Source: an uncultured virus (IMG/VR IMGVR_UViG_3300038825_001787)
Lineage: Duplodnaviria; Heunggongvirae; Uroviricota; Caudoviricetes
Length of the DNA stretch: 64,000 nt
Reading direction: 5' to 3' (one strand)
Virus record (IMG/VR): IMGVR_UViG_3300038825_001787
The notes below the pieces were generated by a model, which was not told the DNA's origin, did no database searches, and saw only the letters and a program-made list of their open reading frames with translations. The position numbers were made by a program, and so were the translations under genes. Within the stretch, counting starts at the first letter, position 1. The number at the start of each line of letters is the position of its first letter. Shown piece after piece: positions 20,656 to 43,532 of this stretch.

Positions 20656-21108
20656 ATGACGATGAAAGTACCGAAAATGGTAGTTGCAGACTACCTTAAA
20701 TTGCTGCGTAATACAAAAGTCACGGCATCAAAGGAACACGCACTAGTGAACCAAGACGTTCGTGACGGTTTTGTCTATTTTAGGACGTCTGGAGCCATCC
20801 TAGCCTTCAAGAATCTCCTAAGAGCCTCTGAACTAGGAACACAGCCAGAAACAGAGGTGTATCGCCAGAAAACAATAGATTACGAATGGGACAAAGAGAC
20901 TGATGGACTGACTGTTGGTTTAGTTTTAGAGAGAATAGAGAACATTCGTGGGCCAGATGGTGGCGGATATTATACTGGTCGCTGTCCTTCTTGTGCTAAA
21001 AGAGGTAAAGATTCCGATTCCAACCATTTTAGATTCAATCCAGAGCAATCAGTAATATACTGCTTTTCACAGTGTTCTAGGTTCGATATAGTAGGTGCAT
21101 TAAAATGA
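20656..21108 (+). CDS. primase-type Zn-binding domain protein
   Basis: RCPSC...D..NHF.F....YCFSQC; coupled to PolB. Confidence 0.55.
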   Translation: MTMKVPKMVVADYLKLLRNTKVTASKEHALVNQDVRDGFVYFRTSGAILAFKNLLRASELGTQPETEVYRQKTIDYEWDKETDGLTVGLVLERIENIRGPDGGGYYTGRCPSCAKRGKDSDSNHFRFNPEQSVIYCFSQCSRFDIVGALK

Positions 21109-23831
21109 TTATTAGTACAGGAATTAACGACGGTTGGCCATCAAATGAACTTAACCTACGGTGGAGAGAACAGAACGAAGTTGGACAGTGGATGCGTAAA
21201 GAAAAGGTAGTTACCGATTTTAAGCCGTATTTATTTGTTCATCCAAATCATACTAAGGTCAGAGCAGACAGAAACAAAGGTCTGAAAGAACGAAGACTTG
21301 ACAGGCACTCATTAGATACTTTCTTGACAGATAGGTATGACGTACAGTCTTTTGAGAAGGTCACAGATGCAGTTGCTGCAAACGGCGACCCACTATGGAA
21401 GGTTACTTTTGATTCTCCATCACGATTGAAGAAATTTGCACGAGAGGTTAGTGGTACTTACGAAGCAGATGTTCCATACGAAGATAGGTATCTCATAGAT
21501 ACCATGAATGAGTTACCCGAATATGAGCCTAGAAAAGTGTTTATAGATTTAGAGGCTTTACAATATAATCGTAAAAGTGGTGGGCCAAAAGAAATGAGAC
21601 AGAAAGGCGCGATATGGGCTGACAACCAAAGTATCAATGTAATAGGTTGTTATGATAACTATACTAACATATACACGATATGGACGCAGCACCCATTAGC
21701 ACATGAGCACTTACATAGTTTCTCACAAATAACACCTGTAAAAATGATGAAGTTTGACGGTATAGACGTAGAGATACGTCATTTCGCTAATGAGTATACT
21801 ATGATGCAAGACTTCGTAAAGTGGTTAGAGTTAATAGACCCAGATATGCTATTAGCATGGGGTATGGGGTTTTATGACTTACCTACACTGTATGCGCGAT
21901 TAGAGTCATTAGGTATCGGCGCTGACAAACTGTCGCCATCTTCACTAGGTAAGAACAGGCATGTTGATGAGCCGTCGAGGTGGGCTAAGGATAGATACAA
22001 CTGGACGAAGCAACCTATTAGAGGTCGCACGGTTATATCTTTAGACAGGTTATTCGAGCGCGTCTATCGTGATTCTAAGTCAACGAACCTCCCATCTAAC
22101 AAGTTAGACATAGTTGGGCAGAAATTATTTGGTAGAGGTAAAACTGATTTCAGACCAGATTTCTATGATAGTGATTACCACCTATTCCTAGAGGACTATC
22201 TATACTATAACTTTAGAGATGTATTACTAATGGTAGAGATAGAAGATAAGTATAACCTAGTTAATGGACAAATGGCATTGCAGCAATTGGCTAAGTGTCA
22301 GTTTAGTAGTACCTTCTATGGTTCTTCTTACGCTAGAGTATATTTCATGCGAAAGGCCAGTTTCAAACAGAGAAGCGGTTATTATGCGTCAAAGACCGAC
22401 AAGGGAACAGACGACATGGCATTGCAAGGTGCTATTGTTTTAGACCCCGAAGATTTGGATTCCGTTGGTTTGCATAAGAACGTAGCAATCCTAGATTTCG
22501 CAGGTCTATATCCATCGTGCATGATTGCCGCTAATTGTTCATTTGAGACAAAAGTAGCGAAAGGAGAAGAACAGGAAGATGATATCATTGGTGACGGTTG
22601 TAGGTTTAGACGTAGCCCAATTGGTATTCTACCCGCTTCTGTGTTGGAGTTAGACGAGTTAAGAGACGAATACAAGGCTAAGAGAGATGAAGCCGGTGCA
22701 GAGCATGGTAAGACCTCTAATGAGTTTAGGAAGTGGGATGACGCACAAAAGACTGTCAAGAGGCTCAGAGCCACATTTTACGGTTTGATGGCCTTCAAAG
22801 GCTACTCTTGGGGCGATATAGATATTGCAAGAACAATCACTAAGTTTGGTAGGGATTCTTTGAACGCCATTATGGTTGAGTCTAACAAACTAGGTTATCC
22901 TGTGATTTATGGTCATACTGATTCTATCTTCGTAAAGATGGGTGATGACCTATCAACCGAAGAGTGTGTACAAAAGGCACAGGAACTTGGTACACATTTG
23001 ACAGAGATGATGCAAACTAAGTTACAGTCAAAGGCTATGATTGTTGATTGTGAGATGCTGATGGATAGATTCTACTTACCGAGGCGGAATCGCTACGGTG
23101 GAAGGGTAGTTTGGATGCCAGAGGTCGGTTTTAGTATCTCTAACGAGGCTGTAGAGGACAGAATGAAGATACAGGGGTTGGAGGCCAAGCACGCAAATAC
23201 GTCGCCTGTAGGACGTGGTATTCAACTAAAAGCACTACATATGCTATGGGATGACCATACACCTGAGGAAGTTAAGGCATCTTTGTTAGAATATATTGCA
23301 AACATACGAGACGGTAATGTCAAAACCACGGATTTGATATCTAGGGCTAGGTTGGGTAAATGGTTACCAAACCGAAAAGCCATGCGACAAGTAGCGAACA
23401 GTAAAGATACCGAAGAAAAGATACAACTTGCTCTCAAAAATGTGTCATGGCATTATGCTGATGGTGCTACTAATGACAATACTTCTGTTGACTCTGATGG
23501 AGACGATGCTTGCTATGCTAATTTGTCTGGAGATGCTCGTGGTGCTGCTTGGCATAACATAGTTTTGGCTAATGAAGAATACGATACACTCGACAAAGGT
23601 GATTCATTTTATACTACGTTTGTGAAGGATGGGCCTACTTGGATTCCAGAAGGTGGCTACGTTTCATTCCATGACCTTGAGCAAATATCTGACTACGAAA
23701 TTGATGTGGAGTTAATTATCGAGAAGTTTGTTGTTGGTAAATTAGACCACATAATGTATGGTATGGGAATGTCGTTAGATGACCTTCGTGTTCCTGACCG
23801 TAAGTTTACGGTGGATGAGTTTTTTGACTGA
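21105..23831 (+). CDS. polB: family B DNA polymerase
   Basis: Exo I DLE, Exo II FYDLP, DFAGLYPS, KRLRATFYG, YGHTDS. Confidence 0.97.
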   Translation: MIISTGINDGWPSNELNLRWREQNEVGQWMRKEKVVTDFKPYLFVHPNHTKVRADRNKGLKERRLDRHSLDTFLTDRYDVQSFEKVTDAVAANGDPLWKVTFDSPSRLKKFAREVSGTYEADVPYEDRYLIDTMNELPEYEPRKVFIDLEALQYNRKSGGPKEMRQKGAIWADNQSINVIGCYDNYTNIYTIWTQHPLAHEHLHSFSQITPVKMMKFDGIDVEIRHFANEYTMMQDFVKWLELIDPDMLLAWGMGFYDLPTLYARLESLGIGADKLSPSSLGKNRHVDEPSRWAKDRYNWTKQPIRGRTVISLDRLFERVYRDSKSTNLPSNKLDIVGQKLFGRGKTDFRPDFYDSDYHLFLEDYLYYNFRDVLLMVEIEDKYNLVNGQMALQQLAKCQFSSTFYGSSYARVYFMRKASFKQRSGYYASKTDKGTDDMALQGAIVLDPEDLDSVGLHKNVAILDFAGLYPSCMIAANCSFETKVAKGEEQEDDIIGDGCRFRRSPIGILPASVLELDELRDEYKAKRDEAGAEHGKTSNEFRKWDDAQKTVKRLRATFYGLMAFKGYSWGDIDIARTITKFGRDSLNAIMVESNKLGYPVIYGHTDSIFVKMGDDLSTEECVQKAQELGTHLTEMMQTKLQSKAMIVDCEMLMDRFYLPRRNRYGGRVVWMPEVGFSISNEAVEDRMKIQGLEAKHANTSPVGRGIQLKALHMLWDDHTPEEVKASLLEYIANIRDGNVKTTDLISRARLGKWLPNRKAMRQVANSKDTEEKIQLALKNVSWHYADGATNDNTSVDSDGDDACYANLSGDARGAAWHNIVLANEEYDTLDKGDSFYTTFVKDGPTWIPEGGYVSFHDLEQISDYEIDVELIIEKFVVGKLDHIMYGMGMSLDDLRVPDRKFTVDEFFD

Positions 23832-24121: not shown

Positions 24122-27100
24122 CTACTCAGGAGCAAAATCACCGATTTTAGGTGTGGCACCTACGACAATTGATTCAGTAACGCCTCTAATCGGGTCTTCG
24201 TTACCCATTATGGCACCACCAAGTATTTGCTCTTTAATACGTTGGATTGAAACTCCACCCATTACACTAGGGTTGTCGCTCCCTCCCATTCCGGTAGGTG
24301 ACAGTGATTTGATATATCCATATTCTCCCATACAATCTACTATAGTACGTATATATCTATTATCATAATCCCCTATACCTTTAGTAGTAAGATTCATTTG
24401 GAAATCTAATTCTTCATACAAATTATATATTGCTGCTTCCAACCCAAAATTCTTTTCTATCCATTGGTGATTATTCGTTTCTAATAATGATAAGTCCAAC
24501 ATTCCAGAAAATTCTTTTACTGTGTTGAGAAGAGAATTGCTTGCTGCTTTGATAATCAATTTCCATCTTTCTTTTTCTTCATCTCTTTCCAAGACAATAT
24601 TGTCCAAGCCTGCTATGCCGTTAAAGTTGGAATTAACAATCAGTTCTTTAGCATACAGAAGTGCTGCATCACTAACGTAGTTTGGTAACCCCTCTTCTAT
24701 TTTGTAGCCTACAGGCATAATTTGTATGACAAATGGTAATTCTGGTGCTATTCTACCCTTTATTATCTGAAACTTAAACAAATTACCATTACTTCCTTTA
24801 CTTAACGCTGTTTTTATCTGATTTAGTGCTATGTCTGGAGGTATTTGATACGTTCCCATTGCATCAAAATCAAACTTAACTTGGACCAATTTGTTTTCTA
24901 GGTCATAAGAAACCAATTTTATTATCTGCTTGCCTTTGACTTCTGCTAGTAAAGTTTGTACTCTCTTTGCATCTGATTCCGTTGCATTTTCTGGAAGGTA
25001 TAATTTAGTCAAAGGCCCTTTTATCTTTCCTTCGCTGTATTCTAATATCTGACTCAATCTGGCAATATCCGCTTTGACCCCTGCTTTACCTGCGAAGTGG
25101 AAGGTTCTCAGAGCAGCCTGTGTTGCAGGCTCTCCTATGTCTGCCCCAGCAGTTGCACCGATTGCCTCACCTACACGACACAAACTATCTTCAAAGTAAT
25201 CAGTCAGCCTACTTCCTAGTTTCTTTAGATTCGGTTTAGTTACTTCTCTTATCATTAGTTTCTTTGTAACCAATGCCATTGTGTTTTGTGAGACTATTTT
25301 ACCGACACTTTTAGCCAAAGTAGCAATATCTGAGCCTTTGCTACAGTAAATGCAATCGTCTTCTAGGGTTAAACCATGTTTACAAGCATGGTCATAGAAG
25401 AATGGTTGTAGCGTGATTGTGTAACCACGCCTGTTGGTCTGATCGGTATTACCTCTAATGTGGTAAGGAGCCAACCCATCATCACCTACTACTGGAGAAA
25501 TCACTCTTTTGGTACGTAAGTTGACGACTTGTCTACGCTGATTGACTACACAGGACTCTAAAGCCTTAATCATTTTACGCTCTAAGTAGCCAGATTTAGC
25601 AATATTTCCTTGAGCAGACTCTACTGTCGAACGCCTTCCTGCGATAGAAGTCATAAAATACTCATCTGGCTCCATCCCTCTAGAATAGTTACCTCTAATG
25701 AAACCCCTGTGTCGCGGGTCTAAACTATTTTTTGGGTAGTGTGGAAGTACCCTTCTTGCTTGAATACCAGCAGTAACCCTCAACTCAGCCAATCTAACTT
25801 GCCCAAACGCACCAGCCATTTGTTGGATGTTCATTGGTTTTCCTCTTGCTTTAGACCTAACAGCGATTTGCATAGCGTTGCCGCTACCCTGATAGTCTTC
25901 TATTGCGTCTAACATCTCTTTTTCAAACTGGTCTGTGAAGCCTAGTATCTCATCTTCGATGAAAGACAATGGGTCTGCGAGTGCTTCTATTGCCTTTTCG
26001 GGTCTGTTGTTTGCTACATACTCTTTCAATCTACCATTGGCGAACGCAGTATCTATTTTTAGTATCTTATTAGCACAGTTTTCGTATAATCTATCAATCT
26101 TTGAACTTACTGGTACTGCGGAAACGTCTGCAGTTCCCATAGTATATCCTATTAGGTGGTGTGCTGCGAAACCAAGTCTGGTAGCCATTTCGATAAATTC
26201 TACTAACTTTTCTTGCCCTTTGTCGTACCCTTCGTGATAAATGAATGATGGAGCGATTGACGCACCACCTTCGCCAAATGCTGACTTTTCTAAAGTACCA
26301 GAAACTAGTTTACCGTTTCTTATAACTACCTTTTCTTTAATTGGTTTGCCGTTTTCGCGTTTTACTACAACAGACCCATCTTCTAGTATTTCAGTTTCTG
26401 GTGTTATTCCTGGGAAACTTGCAGAAACGTACTCTGCATCTAGTACCGTAAAAAGGTGATTAAACAAAGCCCTTCCACTATAACCCGGTCCATTGGGTGT
26501 CATTTCATCGGACTCAGGTAGCGAGTCTATTGTACGATACGTCTTACCTTCTTTCCCGTCTCTTATTTCGCTAAATACAGTAGAATAGCACTCGATGGCT
26601 GCCTTTTTAGACACATATGGTCTACCTTCGGCATTAAATCCTAGTCCAACAGACGCATCCCAAGTGTTAATCCTTTCTTTATCTGTATAAGTCAGCAAGT
26701 AAAGTCCGGAAGTCTGGTCTTGATCGGTAGCAACTGTCAACATTCCGTACCTAGAATGAATAATGTTCTTTGTCAAAGATAATAATTTAATGGCTTCTTT
26801 CTTCGCTGCCTCAGATTGTACGAAGTGTGCCTTCATCGCATCTCCATCGTAGTCAGCATTAAATGGAATACAAACCGTAGGGTTCATGCTGAGGCTTTTT
26901 GTTGGAACAATTCTTGACCTAAATGCCATTATTGACTGTCTGTGCAGAGACGGTGCGCGGTTAAATAAGCATATATCACCATCCATTATGTTCCTTTTGA
27001 TTACCTTGCCGGGTTGTAAGTTGTCCATCACTCTAGTTAGATGCTCAACTGGTTGTTTAGAATTTATTTTATCGGGCGCTGGGTGGTTGGGGTAGTCGTA

Positions 27101-28804
27101 TATGTATGTTATTTTAGGGTGTTTGTCGTCAATGACATTTTGTATGTAACTTTTAAGTCGAACTATGTTTTCGTTAGTTACTGTTTCAGGATAAGATATC
27201 TCTTGCGCCATAACTATTGGGACTCCGACTTCGTCTATTGCTAAATTTGGGTCTGGGCTAATTGCAGAATAACCAACGTTGTTTACGTACTTAGACTGCA
27301 GGTTGTTCCTAAACCTACCCTTTTTACCTTCTAATCTGTTTAATACACCTTTCAAAGATTCGTTTTGAACACCGCCGCCATAGGTGAATGTTTGGCGTGT
27401 GCCGCCCGAACCAATTGTTTGATTGGTATTGTCAATTAACCTAGATACCGAAAATAACAACATTTTTCTTGCGTAATTTCTACTTCCAGATCGCCTTCCA
27501 GCATTTATTCTCTCCCGTACTATGTTCGCATCGCTTACTATTGCTGAATATAATTTAGTTAAGTCATCAACATCAGTCCTACCATCGCTTCTTTGTCTCA
27601 ATGGTCTAGAAGCATTGGGTATAACAGGTAATGACTCGAAAAACATATGCTCTGGTCTAGAAGTAATTGGGTTTAATGCCATAAAATAGCAATCGCTATC
27701 TGGGATATCGGATAGTATATCTCTAACAGCGATAAAGTCCAGTTTTCTAACACCATCTGCTCTAGGTGTAACATAAGAAAACTCTGCAGAATTAAAGTAG
27801 AACTCAATTTTTGGTGTTACCTCATTGCAATGTGGACAAACTCTACCTGTCTTATTCATTTCATTAAAAAACGGACCCATCATGCTTCGTACTCTTCTTC
27901 TGGATGCAATATTCTTACCACCGATATCAAACTCTTGCATTACTCTTGGTCGCTGACTTTCTAACAAGTCATTACGCAACATAACCCTGCTGCAACTATG
28001 ACACGTCTTGTTTAACACGTCTAATAACGGTAAATCTGGCTTGCCTTTGTTCTTGGATGCACCTAAGAACAAGATGTTTGGTATAGGAATTGGCAGTCTA
28101 ATGTAACCAAAATGACCTGAACAAGATTTCGTAGCGTCGTTGACTTGTGGGTCGAAAGCCAGGTTGCAAGTTGGACAGTCTTCTTCCTTAGCCAAAGAGC
28201 CCATTCTCGGATCCATTGTTCCACCTATGACCGGTACGACCCCATTGGTGTCTTCTCTGATTGCTTCTCCAGTAATTATTTCAATCACAGCAAGTTTTTC
28301 GACCTCTTCTGGTGACATTAATTCCATGTTTACCGCAGCAACCTCCCCAGGTGTTCTTAGGTCAATTCTGTCATTTTTATAATTGGTATAAAATGCAATA
28401 GGTAAGTCTTCACTAGCCTTGCCTTTCATTATTTTTTCTTTAATTGGTACTTCTAAAACCATACCCTCTAGTCCATCAGGTATCATTTTAGGGTATTTTT
28501 CAGACTTGTCTGTTAGGTCGTAAGATGTTTCTATTTTCACAAGAAAGTAAATGTCAGATGCTGCTCTAAGTCCAGCAGCGTCTTCGTGTGTTAATAGGTA
28601 TCTTTTTGCCTCCCCTGCGTATCTTGGAACCCATTTATGCTTTAGCCTACCGTTATTTAAGTCAAAATCTATAAAATCTTTTGTTGCTGTAAAAGTCGTA
28701 CCCTCTTCTCTGGTAGAAGGTAGTTCAATCTCTTCTGAATAGATGTCTTCTGGTTTGACAAACCAAATAAAAGACCGTATCCCAACCGCTTCTGGTTCTT
28801 CCAT
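24122..28804 (-). CDS. DNA-directed RNA polymerase largest subunit, fused A'+A'' (Rpo1/Rpb1-like)
   Basis: DPRMG, CSGHFG, GKKGRFR, FNRAPSLH, NADYDGD, SGYLERKMIK, IGEPATQAALRTFHFAG, GVTESIVVG. Confidence 0.97.
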   Translation of the reverse strand: MEEPEAVGIRSFIWFVKPEDIYSEEIELPSTREEGTTFTATKDFIDFDLNNGRLKHKWVPRYAGEAKRYLLTHEDAAGLRAASDIYFLVKIETSYDLTDKSEKYPKMIPDGLEGMVLEVPIKEKIMKGKASEDLPIAFYTNYKNDRIDLRTPGEVAAVNMELMSPEEVEKLAVIEIITGEAIREDTNGVVPVIGGTMDPRMGSLAKEEDCPTCNLAFDPQVNDATKSCSGHFGYIRLPIPIPNILFLGASKNKGKPDLPLLDVLNKTCHSCSRVMLRNDLLESQRPRVMQEFDIGGKNIASRRRVRSMMGPFFNEMNKTGRVCPHCNEVTPKIEFYFNSAEFSYVTPRADGVRKLDFIAVRDILSDIPDSDCYFMALNPITSRPEHMFFESLPVIPNASRPLRQRSDGRTDVDDLTKLYSAIVSDANIVRERINAGRRSGSRNYARKMLLFSVSRLIDNTNQTIGSGGTRQTFTYGGGVQNESLKGVLNRLEGKKGRFRNNLQSKYVNNVGYSAISPDPNLAIDEVGVPIVMAQEISYPETVTNENIVRLKSYIQNVIDDKHPKITYIYDYPNHPAPDKINSKQPVEHLTRVMDNLQPGKVIKRNIMDGDICLFNRAPSLHRQSIMAFRSRIVPTKSLSMNPTVCIPFNADYDGDAMKAHFVQSEAAKKEAIKLLSLTKNIIHSRYGMLTVATDQDQTSGLYLLTYTDKERINTWDASVGLGFNAEGRPYVSKKAAIECYSTVFSEIRDGKEGKTYRTIDSLPESDEMTPNGPGYSGRALFNHLFTVLDAEYVSASFPGITPETEILEDGSVVVKRENGKPIKEKVVIRNGKLVSGTLEKSAFGEGGASIAPSFIYHEGYDKGQEKLVEFIEMATRLGFAAHHLIGYTMGTADVSAVPVSSKIDRLYENCANKILKIDTAFANGRLKEYVANNRPEKAIEALADPLSFIEDEILGFTDQFEKEMLDAIEDYQGSGNAMQIAVRSKARGKPMNIQQMAGAFGQVRLAELRVTAGIQARRVLPHYPKNSLDPRHRGFIRGNYSRGMEPDEYFMTSIAGRRSTVESAQGNIAKSGYLERKMIKALESCVVNQRRQVVNLRTKRVISPVVGDDGLAPYHIRGNTDQTNRRGYTITLQPFFYDHACKHGLTLEDDCIYCSKGSDIATLAKSVGKIVSQNTMALVTKKLMIREVTKPNLKKLGSRLTDYFEDSLCRVGEAIGATAGADIGEPATQAALRTFHFAGKAGVKADIARLSQILEYSEGKIKGPLTKLYLPENATESDAKRVQTLLAEVKGKQIIKLVSYDLENKLVQVKFDFDAMGTYQIPPDIALNQIKTALSKGSNGNLFKFQIIKGRIAPELPFVIQIMPVGYKIEEGLPNYVSDAALLYAKELIVNSNFNGIAGLDNIVLERDEEKERWKLIIKAASNSLLNTVKEFSGMLDLSLLETNNHQWIEKNFGLEAAIYNLYEELDFQMNLTTKGIGDYDNRYIRTIVDCMGEYGYIKSLSPTGMGGSDNPSVMGGVSIQRIKEQILGGAIMGNEDPIRGVTESIVVGATPKIGDFAPE

Positions 28805-28808
28805 GTTC

Positions 28809-29543
28809 TCACTTTCTAATTAACTTGATAGAAACTCTATCGGTAATCAGATACTGTGGGTGCATTGCCAATCCGGTTTGTGGATCTAACTCAGCAACGT
28901 CTGGGATCTTGACTAATGCTTGAGTCAATTCACCAAGATTAACAACCCCGTTGGCTCCGATATTGAATTCTTTAACAAATTCTGACTCATTTGTCATACT
29001 CTCTTTAATCAGTTTAGTTCTACCATACTTAGACTTAACTTTGAAGGCATTTGATGTCGAGTTACTACTAACATGATAAGACACCAATACCCTTAATGGA
29101 ACTGCAGAAAATATTTTACCGTGTTGTGTAAATGCCGAATCTAGTCCATAATACATTCCTGTTGCATTTGCTATACCTTCTTCATCTTTAGGCATGGTAA
29201 TTATTATTTCATCACCTCTGATTTGAATATTATTTAGTTGTGATACATCTAGTGTCTTAGGAAATGTATTATTTTGCTTGTAACCAATGTTTACCACTGC
29301 CATTGGTAGTTCACCTGCATCATTGACCATACACATTATGACGTTATGAGACGGCAAACCAACACCGTCAAAAGGTGCGCCAAATGACACACCTTTGCTT
29401 CCTAAAAGGAAATGATGTATCTTATTTGTACGGATATAATTCTGTCTAAAGTTAACTCTACTTGAGTTTAATGTGGCATTCTCTTGTATCCTTCGTGCCC
29501 TTTCATCTGCTCTATTGGCAAAGTTCACCATATTCAGAGCCAA
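28809..29543 (-). CDS. hypothetical protein in the RNAP operon
   Basis: 244-aa ORF ending 4 nt before the RNAP start. Confidence 0.65.
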   Translation of the reverse strand: MALNMVNFANRADERARRIQENATLNSSRVNFRQNYIRTNKIHHFLLGSKGVSFGAPFDGVGLPSHNVIMCMVNDAGELPMAVVNIGYKQNNTFPKTLDVSQLNNIQIRGDEIIITMPKDEEGIANATGMYYGLDSAFTQHGKIFSAVPLRVLVSYHVSSNSTSNAFKVKSKYGRTKLIKESMTNESEFVKEFNIGANGVVNLGELTQALVKIPDVAELDPQTGLAMHPQYLITDRVSIKLIRK

Positions 29544-29562
29544 GACGCATTAAGCCATAAGT

Positions 29563-29991
29563 CTAACCCTGTGCATGACGGTATGCAATATAATCAGCCA
29601 TGTCATTAATTGGATGTTCTGAATGTGAACGAACCCACTGTAACTCCACTCTACAAGGGAAATTGTCTATTCTTGACTTGATAGTTCTAGTTGTATTAAC
29701 CATGGTTTCGTTTCTTGGGTCTTCATCACTCTCTATCAACTCTATAGCAGATAGGCTGTCAGAGACTATTCTGACAAAATCGTTTTCATTGGCTACGGTT
29801 TTTGCTAAAACTAATCCTAGATTGATTGCAGATAACTCAGCGTGAGTACAGTTACCAATATCTTTAGTCTGTCCTATGGACTTCAATATCCTATTATCAG
29901 TTATATTTACTAGTATAGCAGATAGACCTGAACTATAGTCTATATCACTCTCTATAGTAGAGGCATCAGTATAACAATTATAGACTACCAT
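29563..29991 (-). CDS. ribonuclease HI
   Basis: YTDAS, AELSAI, SDS, WVRSH, N.MAD. Confidence 0.9.
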   Translation of the reverse strand: MVVYNCYTDASTIESDIDYSSGLSAILVNITDNRILKSIGQTKDIGNCTHAELSAINLGLVLAKTVANENDFVRIVSDSLSAIELIESDEDPRNETMVNTTRTIKSRIDNFPCRVELQWVRSHSEHPINDMADYIAYRHAQG

Positions 29992-29996
29992 ATTAA

Positions 29997-30236
29997 TCAG
30001 TAAATAACTCTTCTATAATAGGGTATCATTCCACCCACTTTAGAATTTCTAATTATTTTGATTACATCGTTAACTTGGATTTCCTCACCTTCTTCTATTA
30101 ACTTGGTGATGGCGGCATCGGAGTATTTGATTAATGGTAACTCTTCTAAAGAGACATTTATTGCTTTCAGTTCTTTTTTAGTTTGTGCTGGGGTCAATTT
30201 TATGTGCTTTGGTGCATATTTCCACTCAAAGCCCAT
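29997..30236 (-). CDS. rpoH: RNA polymerase subunit Rpo5/H (short archaeal form)
   Basis: PKH..L...LPLI..SD...DVIKIIRNS..G...YYRRV. Confidence 0.9.
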   Translation of the reverse strand: MGFEWKYAPKHIKLTPAQTKKELKAINVSLEELPLIKYSDAAITKLIEEGEEIQVNDVIKIIRNSKVGGMIPYYRRVIY

Positions 30237-30240
30237 TTAA

Positions 30241-30813
30241 TCAATCCTCCCAAGGAATGTCATCCCACTCGGTACTGTCTTCGTCGAAGAAGTCGTCATC
30301 CCAGTCGTCTGTATCGTCGGCCTCAATATCTGCAGGCTCTTCTGTGTCGGTTTCGGTAGAATCTCCCACGTCAGAATCGGTAGGTGTATCGGCATCGTCC
30401 TCAACTTCCTCGTCAGCCGGAAGGGGTTCTGGTACTTCTGCTTCACTATCATCTTCAACGTCATCTTCGGGTTCTTCCTCTTCAACCTCATCTTCTGGTT
30501 CTTCGTCTTCTGGTTCTTCATCTTCCGATTCTTCATCTTCATCTAATGAATCCCAATCTAAATCTTCCCAATCGTCTTCCCAGTCGTCTTCTTCGGGCAT
30601 TACTAAGTCTGGAGTTTTCTTCTTAGTAGCATTTTCTTTGGGTTCTTCTGGTTCGTCGTCAACAGAAACTAGTTCTCCTAACTCTACCAAGTCTATTTTA
30701 TCGTTCTTTTTCTGGTCTAATGCAGAAAGAAATGAGTCTAATTTGTTATCGGCGCTTTCTTCGTGCATTGCTTCTATTGATAGGGTCATCGTGACTTCGT
30801 ACAGTTTCATCAA
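30241..30813 (-). CDS. extremely acidic protein
   Basis: D/E-dominated C-terminal ~120 aa punctuated by Trp. Confidence 0.7.
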   Translation of the reverse strand: MMKLYEVTMTLSIEAMHEESADNKLDSFLSALDQKKNDKIDLVELGELVSVDDEPEEPKENATKKKTPDLVMPEEDDWEDDWEDLDWDSLDEDEESEDEEPEDEEPEDEVEEEEPEDDVEDDSEAEVPEPLPADEEVEDDADTPTDSDVGDSTETDTEEPADIEADDTDDWDDDFFDEDSTEWDDIPWED

Positions 30814-30918
30814 GCATACGATGACATGATAAGATACTTAAAAAATATGGTTATAGTAACATAACAACACGTAATCCATAGAGAATGGTTTAAATAACCT
30901 ATAGATAACCGAAGAGGC

Positions 30919-31086
30919 GTGGCAAAGGAGTCGACACGGGAGGATGATTTTACGACTATTCGTATTCGTAAGAAAGATAAAGCCGACTTAGAAAAGTTAG
31001 CCTTGCCAAGAGAAGCACTGTGGGAAACTGTGAAAAGAATGAAAGATTCTTTCACGGTCAAAAGAATGACTCAGAGGAAAAAGTGA
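30919..31086 (+). CDS. ribbon-helix-helix-like small regulator (not in the ORF track)
   Basis: GTG start; TTIRIRKKDKADLEKL...LWETVKRM. Confidence 0.45.
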   Translation: MAKESTREDDFTTIRIRKKDKADLEKLALPREALWETVKRMKDSFTVKRMTQRKK

Positions 31087-34358: not shown

Positions 34359-34405
34359 ATAGGAAAAACCAAAAGTCGTCCTACGGGGCGCATACTAGAT
34401 GGAAC

Positions 34406-34482
34406 GGGCCTATGGCTTAGTCAGGTAGAGCGTCCGGCTCTTAACCGGAATGTCGCAGGTTCGAACCCTGCTAGGCCCGCCA
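34406..34482 (+). tRNA. tRNA-Lys (CTT) with encoded CCA
   Basis: Acceptor GGGCCTA/TAGGCCC, anticodon arm TCCGG-CTCTTAA-CCGGA, T loop TTCGAAC. Confidence 0.95.
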
Positions 34483-34638
34483 CCATTAATAGATGAAAGT
34501 AGTTGACACTTGCGACCTATGTTCCCGAAGAGGAATTATATGGTCTAACAAAGATAACACACGCATTTGTAAGAAATGCAATAACAGAATAGAATTAGAT
34601 CTATTACTGGATCCTCCGGAAACGAAGGATGATACTAG

Positions 34639-35052
34639 ATGGACACATCAAACGAAAATAAATACTATATAAACGGAAAAGAAACTGGAGGTTATTTAGA
34701 AATAAATCATGAACTTTGTGAACAAGACAAAGTCTACGAAAATTACGAAATTACTTCAATAAGAAAAAATGGACTCGAACCCCGTTGTATTGGAGGAACT
34801 ATAACGACACAGTTGTATAAACTGATTATAGAAAAAGATGGAATAGAAAGTGAATTAGAATTAGGGTCGAGAGACTCTGAAAAACTTGCTTACTATACCA
34901 ATATGTACTATCATAATACACCCGATGACATTGACTTGCCAAAAGTGGTGTCTTTCACTTGGATAAGAATGAAGACCAAACGTGGAAACACCTACTTGGA
35001 CCTTAATATCCTGTGGAACTTAGTACCTGTAAAAAAGATTACAGAGTCTTGA
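34639..35052 (+). CDS. hypothetical protein
   Basis: Starts at TACTAG-ATG. Confidence 0.65.
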   Translation: MDTSNENKYYINGKETGGYLEINHELCEQDKVYENYEITSIRKNGLEPRCIGGTITTQLYKLIIEKDGIESELELGSRDSEKLAYYTNMYYHNTPDDIDLPKVVSFTWIRMKTKRGNTYLDLNILWNLVPVKKITES

Positions 35053-35084
35053 AACCGCTACAAGCGGATACTAGGAGAGATAAA

Positions 35085-35645
35085 ATGAATAATGTGAAAA
35101 TTATTGCCAATGGATTCGTCCTACGCCAAACCAAAGAAAGCCCGTTCAGTTACTATGCTGGACAACTTCCGGAGGTGGTGCGTTTGGTTGAAACCCATTG
35201 GGAAGAACAAACCCCAGGATATCGTGACGGCGTAATAACCGTCCGTGTTCCAAGTGAGGGATTTTACTCCGGCGTCGCCCAACTGAAAGAAGATGATGAA
35301 CTCTCGGGTTCATTTAAATCACGAAGGAAAGGCGAATTGCCAAGAAAGCAAATTGGTGCAAAAGGAGCCCAGAAAGTTCCTGCACAACAAACAGACATTG
35401 TACTATACCGAAAGGATGTACTAGCAGAGTCTAATGACAACACCCCTGATGTTCACGCTGATTGGGAAATTATTAGTATTAATGCTAGTCCAGTGGTAGG
35501 CGAGATGCCTATACATCCTGAGACATTATGTGCCAATTATTTTGGCGATGATGGAGGCACAGACACTAATATGTCGCCTGAAGAGTTTACAACGGCTCTT
35601 CGCACTTCGCGAGAATGGTGGAGTGACAAGGCTATGTGTGCATAA
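35085..35645 (+). CDS. DUF3228-like protein
   Basis: PGYRDGV, RR.GELP, DIVLY, WEIISI, P..P.T...N...GG; family recalled from memory. Confidence 0.5.
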   Translation: MNNVKIIANGFVLRQTKESPFSYYAGQLPEVVRLVETHWEEQTPGYRDGVITVRVPSEGFYSGVAQLKEDDELSGSFKSRRKGELPRKQIGAKGAQKVPAQQTDIVLYRKDVLAESNDNTPDVHADWEIISINASPVVGEMPIHPETLCANYFGDDGGTDTNMSPEEFTTALRTSREWWSDKAMCA

Positions 35646-35696
35646 CACCAAAAAGTTATGATGCGGCTTAGGGTATACTCTAAGTACGCTCATTAG

Positions 35697-36053
35697 ATGG
35701 ATCAAGAAATTGAAGAATCAATTAAGAAAGAATGCAATGATATAGTGTATTGGACTGACAAAGAAACGCAAGCAAAAAAGGCTTTAGACGAAGCCGAAGA
35801 CCGCTTGTTGGACTTTATCGAAGCGCACTACAAAGACAAACTTCCTACTGACGAGAAGTTTGCCGATATTAGAATCGGCAAGTACCGAATATGCGTTGCT
35901 AACCACCGCAACAAATACAATACTATACTATACGTTGAGGAAGAACTCAAGCCACCGACACCGGTGACTTTGGAAAGTGCAACCGCAGAAGATGCCCCAC
36001 ACTGGGCATTGTCTGCATTAGGTTCACTATTTCCAAGTAAGGAAGAAGAGTAA
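35697..36053 (+). CDS. hypothetical protein
   Basis: Starts at hairpin+ATTAG-ATG. Confidence 0.65.
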   Translation: MDQEIEESIKKECNDIVYWTDKETQAKKALDEAEDRLLDFIEAHYKDKLPTDEKFADIRIGKYRICVANHRNKYNTILYVEEELKPPTPVTLESATAEDAPHWALSALGSLFPSKEEE

Positions 36054-36070
36054 AATCTTTCCTTTACTAG

Positions 36071-36289
36071 ATGCCCCGAGATATTGAAGAATACCGAAAG
36101 GAAGTAGACGCACGAACTGAACAACCTGAGAGACCAGTATGTCTCCAGAATAATTCATGGTGGGATGTTAAAATGTCCCGCTATGAAGACATGAGTCGTC
36201 TACAAGAACACCGCAAGAACATTGCTAGAAATAACAGTACTTCCAGTAGACACGGAAGGAAACATGCTAGCAACGGAAGGATGCGCTGA
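36071..36289 (+). CDS. hypothetical protein
   Basis: Starts at TACTAG-ATG. Confidence 0.55.
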   Translation: MPRDIEEYRKEVDARTEQPERPVCLQNNSWWDVKMSRYEDMSRLQEHRKNIARNNSTSSRHGRKHASNGRMR

Positions 36290-36607
36290 AACCATAACGC
36301 TGCTTAGGGACATCTCTAAGTGAGCCGTTATTAGAATGTATATAGGAAATGAAAAAACATTAAGGGATATAAGAACGACTGATGGAACGACTGATATTGT
36401 ACTATCAGCAGTCACCGCATGGCAGATGATACCATATAACATCAATCCGAAGATTAAAAATTTACAAATCTTCCTGCAAGGTGATACCATATTTACAGTG
36501 GACGCAAGCCAATCATTGGCTGTACTTAATCATCTACGCACCCACATAGGATAAGCGATATCCCGCTACTAGACAGAGTTATACCGGTATTGAAGGCATA
36601 CTGCCAT

Positions 36608-36646
36608 ATACCGGTATAAAATGAAACGTTATAATAATGTAAGGAG
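36608..36646 (+). promoter_or_regulatory. repeated promoter-like element, copy 3 (extra ATACCGGTAT at 36581)
   Basis: Same palindrome and ACGTTATAATAATGTAAGGAG. Confidence 0.7.
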
Positions 36647-36663
36647 AAGATGCCTTACAGAAT

Positions 36664-36795
36664 AGATAGATTATCTTTCCTTTATTGGGAAGACGATTTA
36701 TCCGGATATCTTTCCGGATAGACGCTTTGGGTCTCGAACTGGATTTATTCAGTGAAGGATTTATTGAGATAAGACTACCAATCTTATCAGATAGA
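36664..36795 (+). ncRNA. duplicated structured non-coding element, copy 2
   Basis: Near-identical to 33302-33433. Confidence 0.6.
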
Positions 36796-37053
36796 ACGGC
36801 ATTGATTAGTAAAATAATTAATGTCATTTTTTTTAGATAGACGATGGCAATACCATTAAGAACGAGTATGGCTCAGAGCATCATTGCTCTGAAAGAAGTT
36901 TATGGAAATGAACCTGTAGAATTTGCAGGTGGAATTCGATTAAACTCAAGTGAGCCAGTACTCAATAAAATAAAGTACTAATGTATAAGTATATTATGAT
37001 ATAGACTAATACATAAGTAATCCTATACTATAGGATCCTAGGAAGAGACTATT

Positions 37054-37986
37054 ATGACTGATAAAGACTATAATAAAAATAAAAGCAACCATAAGCAAAA
37101 CAGAATTGGACCCATCACCATTACTAATAAAGGTAAACTCCCTAGGGGGAAAACCAAGAACAACAGAAATTTAAAGTTCGAATTAGTAGCAGAAGATGGG
37201 AAACAATCCTACTGGGCAACTCTACATGAGAAGCCTAACTGTAATGAAGTTGCAAGAACTCTTGCTTCTATGCCACATAAACTGACAGGAACATTTCTAG
37301 TTGATTGTTTCCAAAGTGACTGGTATAAAGCAAACCCAAACTTGGTAATCGATGTAATGGCTATTCTAATGCAGGATGGCTACATCGACCAAGATGACTG
37401 CGATATCGTATTCAGTAAAACATATCCATTTAGCGAGGCTGAGTGGGTTGAAGACACTGAGTGGAAAGCAGATGCAATAAAAGCATTCTATGTGATGACC
37501 GGGAAGAAAGTTTCCAGTTATCCTAAGAATAAAGAGGAAAGAACTGCCGAGCAAGCAGAGGACTGGTTTCGTAACCACGTTCCTGCAAAACTCGAAGTCT
37601 TAAAATGGAAAGGAGATTTGGTTAGAAACAATGGAAAACCAATCTCTATTCAGTTTGAATTAGAACGTGCGGCTGTAAAGCCGGACTCTAGTGGCAGAAC
37701 CAAGTATCATATTGGAAATCGCAACAAGGGAGACCAACCTGCGAGGACACAATTTATGAGGTTCCCTGCTTTCAAACATAAACCAATTAGACACATCAGA
37801 GGTCGCAGAAGCGAACTCAGAGCAAACTTCCTTTGGCTAAGTATGAGCAAGCGAGTGTGGAATGCACTCAGCAAATACAAAAAGCAGAAAGCAGTTGAAG
37901 AAAAGAATCGTGCCCCTACGTTGGGTGACTCGAATCCAGACTTCATGGCTACATTTTATGCCATGCATAATGACAGTGAAGAATGA
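37054..37986 (+). CDS. hypothetical protein
   Basis: 310-aa ORF. Confidence 0.7.
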   Translation: MTDKDYNKNKSNHKQNRIGPITITNKGKLPRGKTKNNRNLKFELVAEDGKQSYWATLHEKPNCNEVARTLASMPHKLTGTFLVDCFQSDWYKANPNLVIDVMAILMQDGYIDQDDCDIVFSKTYPFSEAEWVEDTEWKADAIKAFYVMTGKKVSSYPKNKEERTAEQAEDWFRNHVPAKLEVLKWKGDLVRNNGKPISIQFELERAAVKPDSSGRTKYHIGNRNKGDQPARTQFMRFPAFKHKPIRHIRGRRSELRANFLWLSMSKRVWNALSKYKKQKAVEEKNRAPTLGDSNPDFMATFYAMHNDSEE

Positions 37987-38165
37987 TATCACAGATACCG
38001 TAAAGAAGCGGGCGGAATATAATATTCTGCCCGCAACTGACGGTTACTAGACACAATTTAAAAGAAGGCTCTCAGCGTTTGCGATTAACCCCGTAAATGC
38101 TGAGGGCAATTTTTTTTTGTCCCGTGTTAATAGTCCCTCATAAGAGGGAGGAGAATGAAAAAAAT

Positions 38166-38627
38166 ATGTCACACAAAATGGAAGGCAAAACCAGCCTGAC
38201 TGTAGAAAACAATGATTGTATAGAAGAAGCGTTACAAGAGGCTATGCCTACTGCAACGATACTGAAGAACGAAATATGTAATGGAATCCGCGAAAGATGC
38301 GATTACGTTATTCGTCAAGCAGGTAAACATGATATTGGGCTTCAAGCAAAGCCAGACGGAACGTATGCTGTAAAGCAATACAACCCCGGCTATGGCGATG
38401 CCAAGAAGATCCAAAAGATCATGGAACCAGTCTATACATCGTATGTCAAGAGTGTTGTTAAGAAAGCACTCAAAGGCAACGCACAGTTGGCAGGCATGAC
38501 GATAAACGGCGACGTAAAAGATGCCGTTATCAAAAAGGATGGCAAAGAAAAGAAAGTAAAGCATATCCGCTTAACAGGTGGATTTACTGGCGGTAAGAAA
38601 GGCAAAACCTCTGGAGGTTGGGTCTGA
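38166..38627 (+). CDS. DUF1257/Ycf35-like protein
   Basis: MSH....T.......EAL...DIGL...PDGTY; adjacent to a DUF2997-like ORF. Confidence 0.65.
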   Translation: MSHKMEGKTSLTVENNDCIEEALQEAMPTATILKNEICNGIRERCDYVIRQAGKHDIGLQAKPDGTYAVKQYNPGYGDAKKIQKIMEPVYTSYVKSVVKKALKGNAQLAGMTINGDVKDAVIKKDGKEKKVKHIRLTGGFTGGKKGKTSGGWV

Positions 38628-38830
38628 TGACTAAGCAAGTAGATATTTACTTTGACCCAGAAACTGGGGAAATGACGGTAAAGATTGATGGTCTTCCAGA
38701 CCAACAATGTTTAGACCTAACCAAGTTCTTGAAAGGGGCTTTGGGAATGACCGATGCAAAGGTTACCCAAACTCACATCAAGTACGAAGGTGACGGTGCT
38801 ACCGGCGGCGAATCAATCCACAGAGGTTGA
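38627..38830 (+). CDS. DUF2997-like protein
   Basis: I.FD..G...V...G.....C...T......LG. Confidence 0.65.
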   Translation: MTKQVDIYFDPETGEMTVKIDGLPDQQCLDLTKFLKGALGMTDAKVTQTHIKYEGDGATGGESIHRG

Positions 38831-39073
38831 AACGCACATCCAATTGGGGATACTAACCGTATCGCCATTACTAGCAAGAGTATAACACAAACTTTTACAT
38901 CATGTAAAAGTAACTTGATCAGTTGCCCGAAGGATAAATTTGTCGGGAATTTGGAGCAGAATAAGCAGGGCCTCACATCCCTACTTTGGCTGGCTATCCT
39001 CGACTTGATGTAAAGGCATACACTTGCGCCAACGGTGCGGCATAAGCAATTGCAAAACTTATGTCGCCCAACA

Positions 39074-39510
39074 GATAGATTTATGGAATAAGAAGATCGT
39101 GATAATATACTGAGGTAAATTAGCCTATGACGTTACGTTACCATTTGGTACATTTCGCGAATTTTAAACACAACTAAACACACTATGTAGTGATTAAGTG
39201 AAACATGCGAACCAAGTTCGCACTTATGGGGCTCCATAAGTTAAAACACTAATCACTACAATAAACACGCAAGAAGACAGACTAATCGACGTCCAAAGGA
39301 CATCAAACGTCAAATTCCCTCATACACCAAATGGTAACGTGATGGGCATATGACAAGATTGGTTCTGGTCTGTATCTGGGAATGCCTTCTACTAAGAGGG
39401 TGCCCAACTGTACAAGTAAACCGATAATCAAAATCGGAGTAACTTGAATGAAGCACCGTACCGGTGGGCCCTACAGTGGTCCAAGATATGGGGCTCCATA
39501 CGTACTAATG
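39074..39510 (+). ncRNA. K-turn-headed structured RNA (3' end uncertain)
   Basis: CTGA-GGT/GCC-TAT-GACG at 39110-39132; 15-bp long-range stem ACGTTACCATTTGGT/ACCAAATGGTAACGT. Confidence 0.5.
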
Positions 39511-41039
39511 TGAATGGAAAATAGTTTATGTAAAAAGAAAACCACTAAACCACGCAGTCACTGTGTGGAATTCCCGGGTGACCCGGTCGTTACAGTGGAC
39601 CGCTCGTGTACTACTATAGTAGACAAGCAAGTACAGAAAGTAGTTTAAAGAATGCATATGTGGAAATTTGCTAAAATTTCCCACATTATGTGGAAGACAA
39701 TCACCAAACGATGACTCTGGGACCTCGCTCCTGGAGGAGCCCGCATGCATGCAATGCTACGGGACCAGTCACCTGCACTATCATCCGGATACAAATGTTG
39801 TAATCGGAAAAGAAGCAGGAGATGCAACAAATTCTGGATACTATAACATAGTAATCGGAGATTTTGTATGGGTGGAAAAAGGCGTATGAGACGTGGTATT
39901 GTATACCGCGGACGAGGTAATAACCTCATCAGGACTTCTCAAGACGACCTAAAATTGTTTTCAGTAAGAATACGCAATGCTACTTCTACAGGAAGAGCGC
40001 CGCCCGAATGGCCCCAAGGACATGCTTAGCGCACGCCTGCCAGGGAAATTCTACAACTTACAATCTAGAAAATACTTTATGACAAATGTAATACAAATAA
40101 CCAAGCCGAAGACATCGACTGTAGTCGACCTTAGGTGGTATACCCGTGGAACAATTTACGGGTCGTTACAACAAAAAAATACATGAAAAATTTACTCGCT
40201 AGCGATAGCGAATACAAACATAAAAAGTGGCTATAAACCTTTTTAGGAAGGATTATGGACAACTTACACACGCGTACGTACATGATGCGCATTGGACAGT
40301 TAACTGAACAAACAACCCAGAGTACCTTTGGGTTAAACGAACGTTCAGGGTCCATCGCAAAAGAAAGAAGAAAGGTTATCAAACAACGAGAAATCCTCAT
40401 GGATGCCTTGTTGGGCTACACCATGAATTCATACAGTAATACAGTAACACTCAACTTTAAGACACGTGAAGAATTGTTTTGACTAATTATGGGACTGCAG
40501 TTTGCAAAACCCAAGTGCTCCATCGCTCACCTGAGTGATGGAAAATAGTTTAAAATCAAAGAAATTGTAAAAGATTTACATTGCCAGACAAAACTCCTCC
40601 CCCTACCGGGGTTAGGACACCAAAAGGTGTTTGGCCAAAAGGGAGAATACGGCGAGGGCACATTCCGTGCCGACCAATTCATCATCTTAGGAACCTAAGG
40701 TGTGTGGCGAGACCAAGATATCTAGAACCAAAGAAAATTCTTCTCAGGTTCTACGACTAGTGGCTCCTCATACCAAACAAAGTACTCTGCGGAGACGCAG
40801 GAACTAGGAACTAATTTGTAGACAAACTCTAAGAAAATTAGGTCACCTATTTACTGATGTAGATATGGTGGTCCTATTTAGAAACCCTAAGTTGTAAACA
40901 AAACAGAACTACCTAAATGTAATCACTGTTTAACAATATCACTGGCGATTGGTAATATGCAACCCGACTATATGTGGGGAAGAATGCTACCAAAATTCCC
41001 GCTTCCCATAAACCTATCACCAGAAGGAGTATTAATAAT

Positions 41040-42776: not shown

Positions 42777-42818
42777 AAACAAACAAGCCTTTAACTGACC
42801 ACTTAGTGGTCATACTAG

Positions 42819-43502
42819 ATGACAAAGAAAGGATTTGTAAAAGAAGGACTGGAAGCAAAAGTGAACGCAAAGGAGTTATTTACTCCGGCAGACTATTTTT
42901 CCGTTGTCCTATATTATAAAATGATGAAAGAAAAGTTAGAATTGCCAAAAATTCTGTCCAAACGGACAGACTTTAGTGATGCGCCACTAGAACTTGCAGA
43001 AGGTCTAGATGACATCATTCACGCAATGATGAATGAATTTGAAAAGAATAATATTGACCCAAGAGAAGAACAAGTAAATCTTGGAGAATTGAATATCTTT
43101 TCTTTTATTATGCACGACCCTTTGCTGAAACAAGCAATAGGTAATGTAGCAAAGCAGGTTTTTATGCGAGACGAAAGAATCGACCAAGAAACTGCAATTA
43201 AAAAAGCACAGGATGCTCTACCAGATTTGATGGGAGACTTCCAAGAAATTTTTTTACCAAACATGATTTCACGCACTTTACCGCAGATATTCCGCAGAAT
43301 GGATATGCATGGTATTGAGCAGAAGGATGCACTGGAAATGCTAGAGCCACAAGTAGCCACTATTGGCTACGAGGCCATAAGAAAGCACGGGTTTAAAATT
43401 GGTGAAGAACTATCAATAGGACTTTACTTTAAACAACCAGTCATCGACACGACTATGAGTGATGAATCGCGTAAAAGCGATGCAGACTCTATGTTTGGTT
43501 AA
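42819..43502 (+). CDS. hypothetical protein
   Basis: Starts at hairpin+TACTAG-ATG. Confidence 0.7.
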   Translation: MTKKGFVKEGLEAKVNAKELFTPADYFSVVLYYKMMKEKLELPKILSKRTDFSDAPLELAEGLDDIIHAMMNEFEKNNIDPREEQVNLGELNIFSFIMHDPLLKQAIGNVAKQVFMRDERIDQETAIKKAQDALPDLMGDFQEIFLPNMISRTLPQIFRRMDMHGIEQKDALEMLEPQVATIGYEAIRKHGFKIGEELSIGLYFKQPVIDTTMSDESRKSDADSMFG

Positions 43503-43532
43503 TTTGGCCTTTGGCCATACTAGAGGAATAAA

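Follow-up and report, generated by a model that had tools for sequence, protein, structure and literature searches.

Can a virus of archaea bring polymerase subunits of its own into the cell, and with what would a catalytic subunit work there if its partner is nowhere to be seen? According to reviews, in the portions available to us, genes for an RNA polymerase (RNAP) are lacking in archaeal viruses, which rely wholly on the host enzyme (PMC5569661). The question is raised by a 64,000-nt stretch of DNA from an uncultured virus (IMG/VR record IMGVR_UViG_3300038825_001787; hereafter the window), whose minus strand encodes an unsplit homologue of RpoA'+A''/Rpb1, the largest polymerase subunit (Rpo1; 24122..28804, 1560 amino acids, aa), and close to it an RpoH/Rpo5 subunit (29997..30236, 79 aa). 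A first-pass annotation, made from the letters of the DNA, had proposed a divergent viral multisubunit transcription machine. The divergence and the archaeal type of the proteins hold up; the self-sufficient machine is not supported, since only Rpo1 and RpoH are recognisable and no second-largest subunit (Rpo2) was found in nine related contigs.

The Rpo1 reading frame stays open over all 1560 codons, with zero internal stops. A Pfam scan placed five Rpb1 domains in it, all above the curated cut-offs: domain 1 at aa 154-502 (E 6.4e-50), domain 2 at 505-676 (E 2.6e-45), domain 3 at 680-894 (E 1.5e-10), domain 4 at 950-1036 (E 2.9e-12) and domain 5 at 1043-1508 (E 4.4e-32). As these sit in order in a single chain, the A' and A'' parts are fused, as the first-pass annotation had read them. 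The domain order, together with the metal site, bridge helix and trigger loop, places the protein among the archaeo-eukaryotic largest subunits. The metal-binding motif NADYDGD (aa 649-655) is encoded at 26840..26860 on the minus strand, and in an alignment of 24 family sequences, 34-81% identical to the window protein, D651/D653/D655, the E1062-E1075 bridge-helix region and the G1224-H1236 trigger loop are invariant, as are the Zn-binding Cys and His residues. Because these catalytic elements do not vary across such deep divergence, Rpo1 is taken to be an enzyme subunit and not a relic; judged by its sequence, it is predicted to be intact and catalytically competent. Its top sequence matches in the PDB are archaeal Rpo1N (E 2.6e-104) and also Pol III RPC1, the solved structures matched including Rpo1N of Sulfolobus, Thermococcus and Pyrococcus (E ~1e-104 to 1e-94). 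The tyrosine of NADYDGD, pointed out at first reading as a variant active site, is present but is not diagnostic, since it is shared by 6 of 139 non-family representatives (P0200-P0338), and one related group (L006) has NADFDGD.

RpoH matches the Rpb5 C-terminal domain (PF01191, E 1.9e-13), its residues 6-77 aligning to positions 7-73 of the 73 in the profile; the eukaryotic N-terminal domain is absent, as in the short archaeal form. The first-pass identification of this product was therefore sound, and homologues were present in all five related records searched and in loci L001 and L003. On the minus strand of the window a 190-aa acidic ORF, RpoH, an RNase H, a 240/244-aa ORF and Rpo1 follow one another, tightly packed. 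With RNase H and the 240/244-aa ORF between RpoH and Rpo1, and no RpoB, this arrangement differs from the rpoH-rpoB-rpoA operon of cells, a departure that had already been remarked on. Three of four groups of related loci keep this arrangement of five genes (acidic protein, RpoH, RNase H, a protein of 213-244 aa, Rpo1), and in the fourth RpoH again lies just upstream of Rpo1.

The catalytic partner of Rpo1 was not recognised in the window or in the relatives searched. No Rpb2 domain was found by Pfam scan among the 183 window ORFs of at least 38 aa, in agreement with the first-pass annotation, and TBP, TFB, TFE and further polymerase subunits likewise had no Pfam match in this set. The search with Rpb2 domain 6 (PF00562) was extended to eight related records and the virus contig of one metagenome-assembled genome (MAG), nine contigs altogether. 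In six frames it gave no match in G001 (0/1), G002-G006 (0/5) or G008 (0/1), and the sole match in the MAG (G007) was a 1278-aa bacterial-type rpoB on another contig, with none on the virus contig. Rpb2 domains 7 (PF04560) and 3 (PF04565) were each found in 0/5 records at E <= 1, Rpb6 in 0/5 relatives, and the TFIIS zinc ribbon gave only sub-threshold matches in the relatives (best E 0.0065). The beta-type motif GDK...RHG.KG occurred in none of the six frames of any relative fetched. As controls, all 14 of 14 control genomes were matched in the Rpb2 search, and PF00623 recovered Rpo1 in G004 and G001.

The fragments searched all stop short of one genome sector, and the 143,638-bp contig IMGVR_UViG_3300020404_001578 was used to cover it. 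This sister contig was recovered by a protein query, not by an exact 45-mer from the G001 end; its Rpo1 is identical to that of G001, which is the reverse complement of its bases 1-105,548, as judged from an equal upstream length of 39.9 kb and an 865-aa protein that maps at 100%. The contig is probably full length, because CheckV rates G001 as 76% complete at 105.5 kb, which implies ~139 kb. Its remaining part, 92.9-143.6 kb, holds ORFs for MCM, ERF, primase, ligase and RusA and giant ORFs, and none of the ORFs there has an Rpb2 domain by Pfam. The same contig encodes a 1272-aa protein (L238:8780-12598, plus strand) that joins HAD phosphatase, NUDIX and YbjQ domains within a block of giant ORFs; giant ORFs bearing YbjQ occur also in G004 and G008.

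A variation on the same theme was found in G008, a 128,784-bp relative with direct terminal repeats that is rated 100% complete. No Rpb1 domain 2 was detected in it and Rpo1N is absent. An 839-aa protein (L251:12544-15063, plus strand) matches over its first ~170 aa residues 30-161 of archaeal Rpo1C/A'', trigger loop included (E 3e-15 to archaeal Rpo1C; Rpb1_5 E 3.3e-19), and a separate RpoH lies at G008:C1:123259-123489. As G008 has an Rpo1C-like protein and RpoH without Rpo1N, partial large-subunit sets recur in the clade: it repeatedly carries part of the set plus RpoH, and never a recognisable Rpo2.

What kind of element carries these genes? The exact Rpo1 of the window is also present on a 139,572-bp contig, contigs with sister Rpo1 clusters range from 134,514 to 142,232 bp, and a degenerate pattern for CIPFNADYDGDAMK matched 84 metagenome stretches. 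Among contigs of the window's own lineage the two longest are LWDU01000015.1 (139,034 bp) and OREN01000066.1 (141,783 bp); the gene lies 76.6 kb into the first and 123.8 kb into the second, and because its position differs between them a circular or permuted genome of ~140 kb fits. IMG/VR holds seven related loci that form three further groups, Rpo1 being 30-37% identical among all four groups. The relatives carry genes for a group II chaperonin (thermosome), MCM, a PCNA-like protein, ERF, RusA and an ATP-dependent ligase, as well as many giant ORFs (829-2955 aa for those without a family in G004); the thermosome was found in G004 and G008 and not within the 64-kb window. By their sequences, the replication genes are of archaeal type. 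The window belongs to a virus-like element of ~140 kb from marine archaea, with Marine Group II/Poseidoniales as its presumed host, an identity that we infer. The Shine-Dalgarno-like words that precede genes indicate a prokaryotic host: GGAGGTGA words are enriched before starts in the relatives, and the window has GGAG leaders.

Pfam and PHROG scans found no HK97/T4-type capsid, portal or terminase family in the window, G004 or G008 at the level of sequence. G004 and G008 do encode an FtsK/HerA-type ATPase of 238-254 aa that matches phrog_2666, 'terminase large subunit' (E 1.6e-17). It lies at G004 L011:11417-12133 (minus strand) and G008 L249:8441-9205 (plus strand), in both cases beside conserved ORFs of 198-346 aa, and the ATPase and its neighbours may form a morphogenetic module of a non-HK97 kind, overlooked in previous work on the elements known as magrovirus group D.

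The Rpo1 family is broad and stands apart from cellular subunits. A word-indexed protein search gave 249 matches at E <= 1e-3 among 7998 scored candidates. Among the best 120 of these 249, about 100 (P0002-P0102) are marine metagenome proteins, mostly of 1535-1690 aa and 32-100% identical to the window Rpo1; next after them, among the matches listed, come unsplit archaeal subunits at 27-28% identity. In an exhaustive HMMER search with Rpo1 residues 150-1100, family representatives scored 397-923 bits and all other sequences at most 353 bits, with 30-34% identity in the matched stretches. No close Rpo1 was found in deposited phages or archaeal viruses, the best reaching 25% identity. A FastTree phylogeny (LG+gamma; 169 sequences, 809 columns) was built from 25 family members, 136 other representatives of at least 800 aa, four Aigarchaeota-type sequences and four bacterial beta' sequences as root, three shorter sequences (<800 aa) having been dropped. 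The family and P0201 form one clade (support 1.0) on a stem of 0.79 substitutions per site, and the 139 archaeal, eukaryote-like and giant-virus-like sequences together make up its sister group (support 0.94-0.97). The clade labels (Pol II/giant-virus-like, Pol III-like, archaeal) were assigned from CTD (C-terminal domain) repeats, lengths, one JGI name and one eukaryote-database member, because nearly all cluster names are empty. The basal position may be due to long-branch attraction, and what can safely be said is that none of the cellular or giant-virus clades sampled includes the family. A phylogeny had been proposed in the first-pass annotation as a check on its reading of a divergent viral enzyme, and on this point the reading is supported.

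How would such a subunit be used? We propose that the viral Rpo1 and RpoH replace their host counterparts in a chimeric polymerase, a reading to which we give a probability of about 0.42 and in which we infer the assembly with host subunits. With no Rpo2 in sight and the catalytic elements of Rpo1 kept, subunit replacement is the simplest working model. The host polymerase would express the Rpo1 operon after infection; the viral Rpo1, with RpoH as its putative jaw-binding partner, would then join host Rpo2 and the platform (Rpo3/10/11/12, Rpo6), displacing host A', A'' and H, or, in members such as G008, Rpo1C would be contributed instead of Rpo1. The virus-specific clamp, jaw and N-terminal domain would redirect the chimeric enzyme to viral genes, possibly those that start at TACTAG|ATG (see below), a supposed link between motif and enzyme. 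Extended to the whole clade, the proposal becomes a shade more tentative: a widespread group of marine archaeal viruses of ~130-145 kb would replace core subunits (Rpo1 or its Rpo1C half, together with RpoH) and so form chimeric RNAPs with new specificity.

Several points weigh against replacement. We know of no precedent for a virus that replaces the largest polymerase subunit alone. With only 27-28% identity between the viral Rpo1 and its nearest full-length archaeal counterparts, it is not obvious that this Rpo1 would fit a host Rpo2; the host is itself presumed. The window's own lineage is covered over 64 of ~139.6 kb, all the records are metagenomic assemblies, and a very divergent or split Rpo2 could have escaped Pfam; that proteins of this clade can diverge too far for Pfam is seen in G008, in the case of Rpo1N.

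These last points lead to the possibility that the element encodes a complete polymerase, with Rpo2 outside the window or, as in the polymerases of phiKZ-type phages, too divergent or split for Pfam and motif scans. The exact Rpo1 on a 139,572-bp contig means that the window is less than half of the genome, the Rpo1-like protein of G008, recognisable over only ~170 aa, attests to extreme divergence in the clade, and there is room for hidden subunits in the many large ORFs without a family in the window (705, 537 and 522 aa) and in G004. Moreover, all the virus polymerases of multisubunit type known to us have both large subunits. We nevertheless consider a complete polymerase unlikely: Rpo1 is picked up without difficulty (E 1e-50), and subunits that work in the same enzyme tend to diverge in step, yet neither Rpb2 domain 6 in the nine contigs, the full-length 143.6-kb one included, nor a beta-type catalytic motif in six frames of the relatives fetched came to light. 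If the two viral subunits do not make up an active transcriptase, they might be a decoy that ties up subunits or factors of the host and so shuts down its transcription, or have another nucleic-acid function tied to the RNase H. Archaeal viruses do inhibit the host polymerase, as described for ORF145/RIP in the accessible parts of two papers (PMC5123050, PMC8448823), and the operon includes, beside RNase H, a strongly acidic and possibly DNA-mimicking protein; a mere decoy, however, would not be expected to keep its catalytic elements invariant across deep divergence, and we think this improbable.

The remaining possibility, that the window is a piece of an archaeal chromosome or megaplasmid with an ordinary cellular polymerase, is in our estimate very improbable. 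It draws on the available text of papers that leave the nature of group D open (PMC5434244, PMC10160649), on one related contig that was binned in a MAG named Euryarchaeota, and on the lack of an identified capsid protein in the window, G004 and G008 in the Pfam and PHROG scans. Against it stand the clustering of contigs at 134-143 kb with a varying position of Rpo1, the terminally repeated 128.8-kb relative rated 100% complete, and the packaging-like FtsK/HerA-type ATPase (phrog_2666). Ribosomal operons and short branches within a cellular clade, named in the first-pass annotation as signs of a cellular origin, did not appear: the 183 window ORFs include no match to ribosomal-protein or rRNA genes, the window has one tRNA and no RpoB, and the Rpo1 family forms a long separate branch.

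The closest description in the literature is that of the tentative magrovirus group D. In the accessible portions, Philosof et al. 2017 (Curr Biol, PMC5434244) mention a 'DNA-dependent RNA polymerase A' for this group in Tara scaffolds and define it, on marine scaffolds, by PolB, a resolvase, RNA polymerase A and a thermosome; Xu et al. 2023 (PMC10160649) and a 2025 study (PMC11706807) find it without capsid genes, enriched in the cellular size fraction and possibly plasmid-like. What they say leaves open whether group D is a virus, provirus, plasmid or cell (PMC5434244, PMC10160649). The element studied here has PolB, a resolvase and Rpo1 in the window, the thermosome in its relatives G004 and G008, and no HK97-type capsid, portal or terminase; its PolB is nearest to those of haloarchaeal tailed viruses, as the available text says of magroviruses. 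By description it would thus be magrovirus group D, the match being to the description and not to a group D sequence. It differs in that those papers, as far as accessible, give no closed genome, whereas here there are contigs of ~139-143 kb and a terminally repeated relative. The bare sighting of an RNA polymerase A gene in this lineage is not new, and the lineage is known but uncharacterised. RpoH, the A'/A'' fusion, the N-terminal domain, the operon and the missing RpoB were not found in the accessible group D literature (PMC5434244, PMC10160649, PMC11706807), nor did the literature searched, in the portions available, yield further reports of a group D polymerase subunit. What appears to be new is a catalytic subunit plus RpoH without a recognisable Rpo2 in nine related contigs, the RpoH in all relatives tested, and the Rpo1C-like protein plus RpoH in a complete relative.

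Other systems resemble this one in part. Archaeal Rpo1N/Rpo1C and Rpo5 share with it the domain set, the catalytic motif, the bridge helix, the trigger loop and the short form of RpoH, but the viral Rpo1 is unsplit, has an extra N-terminal domain of 153 aa and has no Rpo2 alongside. The mReC Caudovirales (Weinheimer and Aylward 2020, PMC7481178) are also prokaryotic viruses from metagenomes with a polymerase in a deep non-cellular clade, and the window family lies, when rooted on bacteria, outside the archaeal/eukaryotic/giant-virus clade. According to the accessible text, mReC contigs were chosen for having both beta and beta' and carry T4-like capsid (PF07068) and terminase (PF03237) genes (PMC7481178). 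Here no Rpb2/beta was found in the window or its relatives, and neither PF07068 nor PF03237 in 96 ORFs of G004, 111 of G008 or those of the window; of six sample numbers, a single one is present in the mReC supplements, as capsid-tree references only.

Nucleocytoviricota and Mirusviricota carry Rpb2, infect eukaryotes and often have an Rpb5 homologue. They resemble the element in having a virus-encoded Rpb1-type subunit beside PolB and primase, and differ from what is seen here, namely no Rpb2, no Pfam or PHROG match to capsids of nucleocytoplasmic large DNA viruses, and Shine-Dalgarno-like words; with the clade labels as assigned above, the family does not nest among giant-virus-like sequences. 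Phages, for their part, reprogram the host polymerase through sigma-like factors or, in the case of T4 Alt and Mod, by ADP-ribosylation. The proposed redirection of a host core enzyme to viral genes would be similar, and the N-terminal domain of Rpo1 is weakly like an ADP-ribosyltransferase (ART; Z <= 4.6), but in the proposed case the virus would exchange a subunit of the catalytic core instead of supplying a detachable factor.

This N-terminal domain (aa 1-153; 28346..28804, minus strand) is specific to the family. Because the first Rpb1 domain begins at residue 154, the extension has ~153 aa, close to the ~160 aa first estimated, and in the HMMER search cellular matches align to Rpo1 only from query aa ~152-158. 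Within the family it is conserved, F12, W14, P60, A76 and R80 being invariant and W58 nearly so in alignments of 24 and 30 sequences. An AlphaFold2 (AF2) model was obtained with a predicted local distance difference test (pLDDT) of 90.2. Foldseek gave no match for it at E <= 0.001 and the ESM Atlas no usable match; a wide structural search gave 84 of 48,161 chains at Z 2 or more, the best at Z 4.6 (root-mean-square deviation 4.2, 98 residues aligned), below the trust level of the tool. Chains with the ART fold are the majority of the best 50 of these 84 matches, all of them weak. Catalytic motifs of ARTs are R-S-E or H-Y-E, and neither triad, nor a conserved Glu, His or Ser-Thr-Ser, was found in the alignments of 24 and 30 sequences. 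We treat the resemblance of the model to ARTs as a weak lead only.

The other genes of the operon, all on the minus strand, offer a mixed picture. The RNase H-like protein (29563..29991, 142 aa; PF00075, E 2.2e-7) holds an identical position in L001 (E 7.5e-16) and L003 (E 2.3e-16). The 240/244-aa protein directly upstream of Rpo1 (28809..29543, probable ATG at 29531) has 24 homologues of 175-241 aa, none with a Pfam domain, and occupies the same place in L001, L003 and L014. A structure prediction for this product had been suggested in the first-pass annotation; it gives a beta-sandwich of moderate confidence (AF2 pLDDT 64.7) without a significant fold match, the best being generic beta-sandwiches (Foldseek E 0.0099, VIA Z 6.3). 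As these matches show no resemblance to Rpo3, Rpo7 or another polymerase subunit, such an identity was rejected. The acidic protein (30241..30813, a 190-aa ORF whose start codon is uncertain) was aligned in 12 sequences from three groups, in all of which it adjoins RpoH; a conserved, folded head of ~45 aa is followed by a tail of ~140 aa rich in Asp, Glu and Trp. It has 17 homologues, without Pfam domains, and we can only guess at a role as DNA mimic, acidic adaptor or factor-binding protein. The cluster is headed on the same strand by an ORF of 83 aa (30810..31061) that has no family match and may not be a gene.

The Rpo1 operon is covered by RNA-library contigs from three studies, in which uncovered stretches carry no information, and one contig of 3446 nt spans 26484-29929, with Rpo1, the 240-aa gene and RNase H; because DNA carry-over is possible, transcription of the operon is not established by them. 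In three RNA-library runs, contigs join position 31897 to 33302, omitting 1404 bases and with 16 other letters in between. The segment 31897-33302, beside the operon, is strain-variable, and further skips occur nearby.

A plus-strand block (34393..63755) contains 20 genes that start at TACTAG|ATG, often behind a short GC hairpin followed by TT. The motif occurs 22 times in the window against 0.56 expected, a count reached in 0 of 100 shuffles, and 20 of the 22 lie on the plus strand at 34.4-63.8 kb (for example at 61351-61359, 62239-62247 and 63369-63377). The first-pass annotation had suggested that the polymerase may read the ACTAG junctions; the motif itself is real. Variants have ACTAG, then the GGAG leader, then ATG, and no TACTAG|ATG precedes the genes of the Rpo1 operon. 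In G008 (L248-L254), 36 of 159 ORFs begin straight after ACTGACC (ACTGACCATG), a lineage-specific ACTGACC|ATG analogous to TACTAG. Since relatives have such other start-adjacent words, TACTAG is not tied to the full Rpo1. It may be a start site, a processing site or a restart signal. The shorter word ACTAG is counted 0 + 0 times on the two strands of G004 (L008-L013, 110,123 bp) and of L006 (24,710 bp), against 163 times in the window and 28-198 times in other relatives, which suggests strong avoidance of it in G004 and L006, perhaps as a restriction site.

The rest of the window is 89% coding and consists mostly of ORFans. The gene for a family B DNA polymerase (PolB; 21105..23831, plus strand; PF00136, E 5e-25) is convergent with that of Rpo1, its nearest full-length matches in deposited viruses being those of haloarchaeal tailed viruses at 21-24% identity, and the PolB-Rpo1 neighbourhood is repeated in L001, L003, L006 and L014. 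Also recognisable are an archaeo-eukaryotic (AEP) primase, a second RNase H, an AAA ATPase, a PD-(D/E)XK nuclease, a serine recombinase (resolvase), an HNH endonuclease and a T4 endoV-like glycosylase. PolB, AEP primase, RNase H, resolvase, the ORFans and the IMG/VR relatives make up the virus-like context that had been noted at first reading. The glycosylase, like the pyrimidine-dimer enzyme T4 endonuclease V, lies at 14025-14615 (plus strand; phrog_624, E 1.6e-52); other single genes are a partial SWIB/MDM2-domain ORF at 5950-6246 (plus strand; E 3.6e-7) and a DUF3228 protein at 35013-35645 (plus strand). The sole tRNA, tRNA-Lys (CTT) at 34406-34482 on the plus strand, lies just past a TACTAGATG site.

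This lineage is abundant in surface oceans, and with a catalytic subunit minus its obligatory partner it breaks the rule that archaeal viruses have no polymerase of their own. If the chimera is real, this would be the first case of an archaeal virus that has its own polymerase subunits, and its enzyme the first chimeric multisubunit polymerase. Should Rpo1 join host Rpo2, viruses would have a further, new route to the control of transcription, and nature would have run an experiment on the interchangeability of polymerase core subunits; the case is also relevant to the question of an ancient or a piecemeal origin of viral polymerase lineages.

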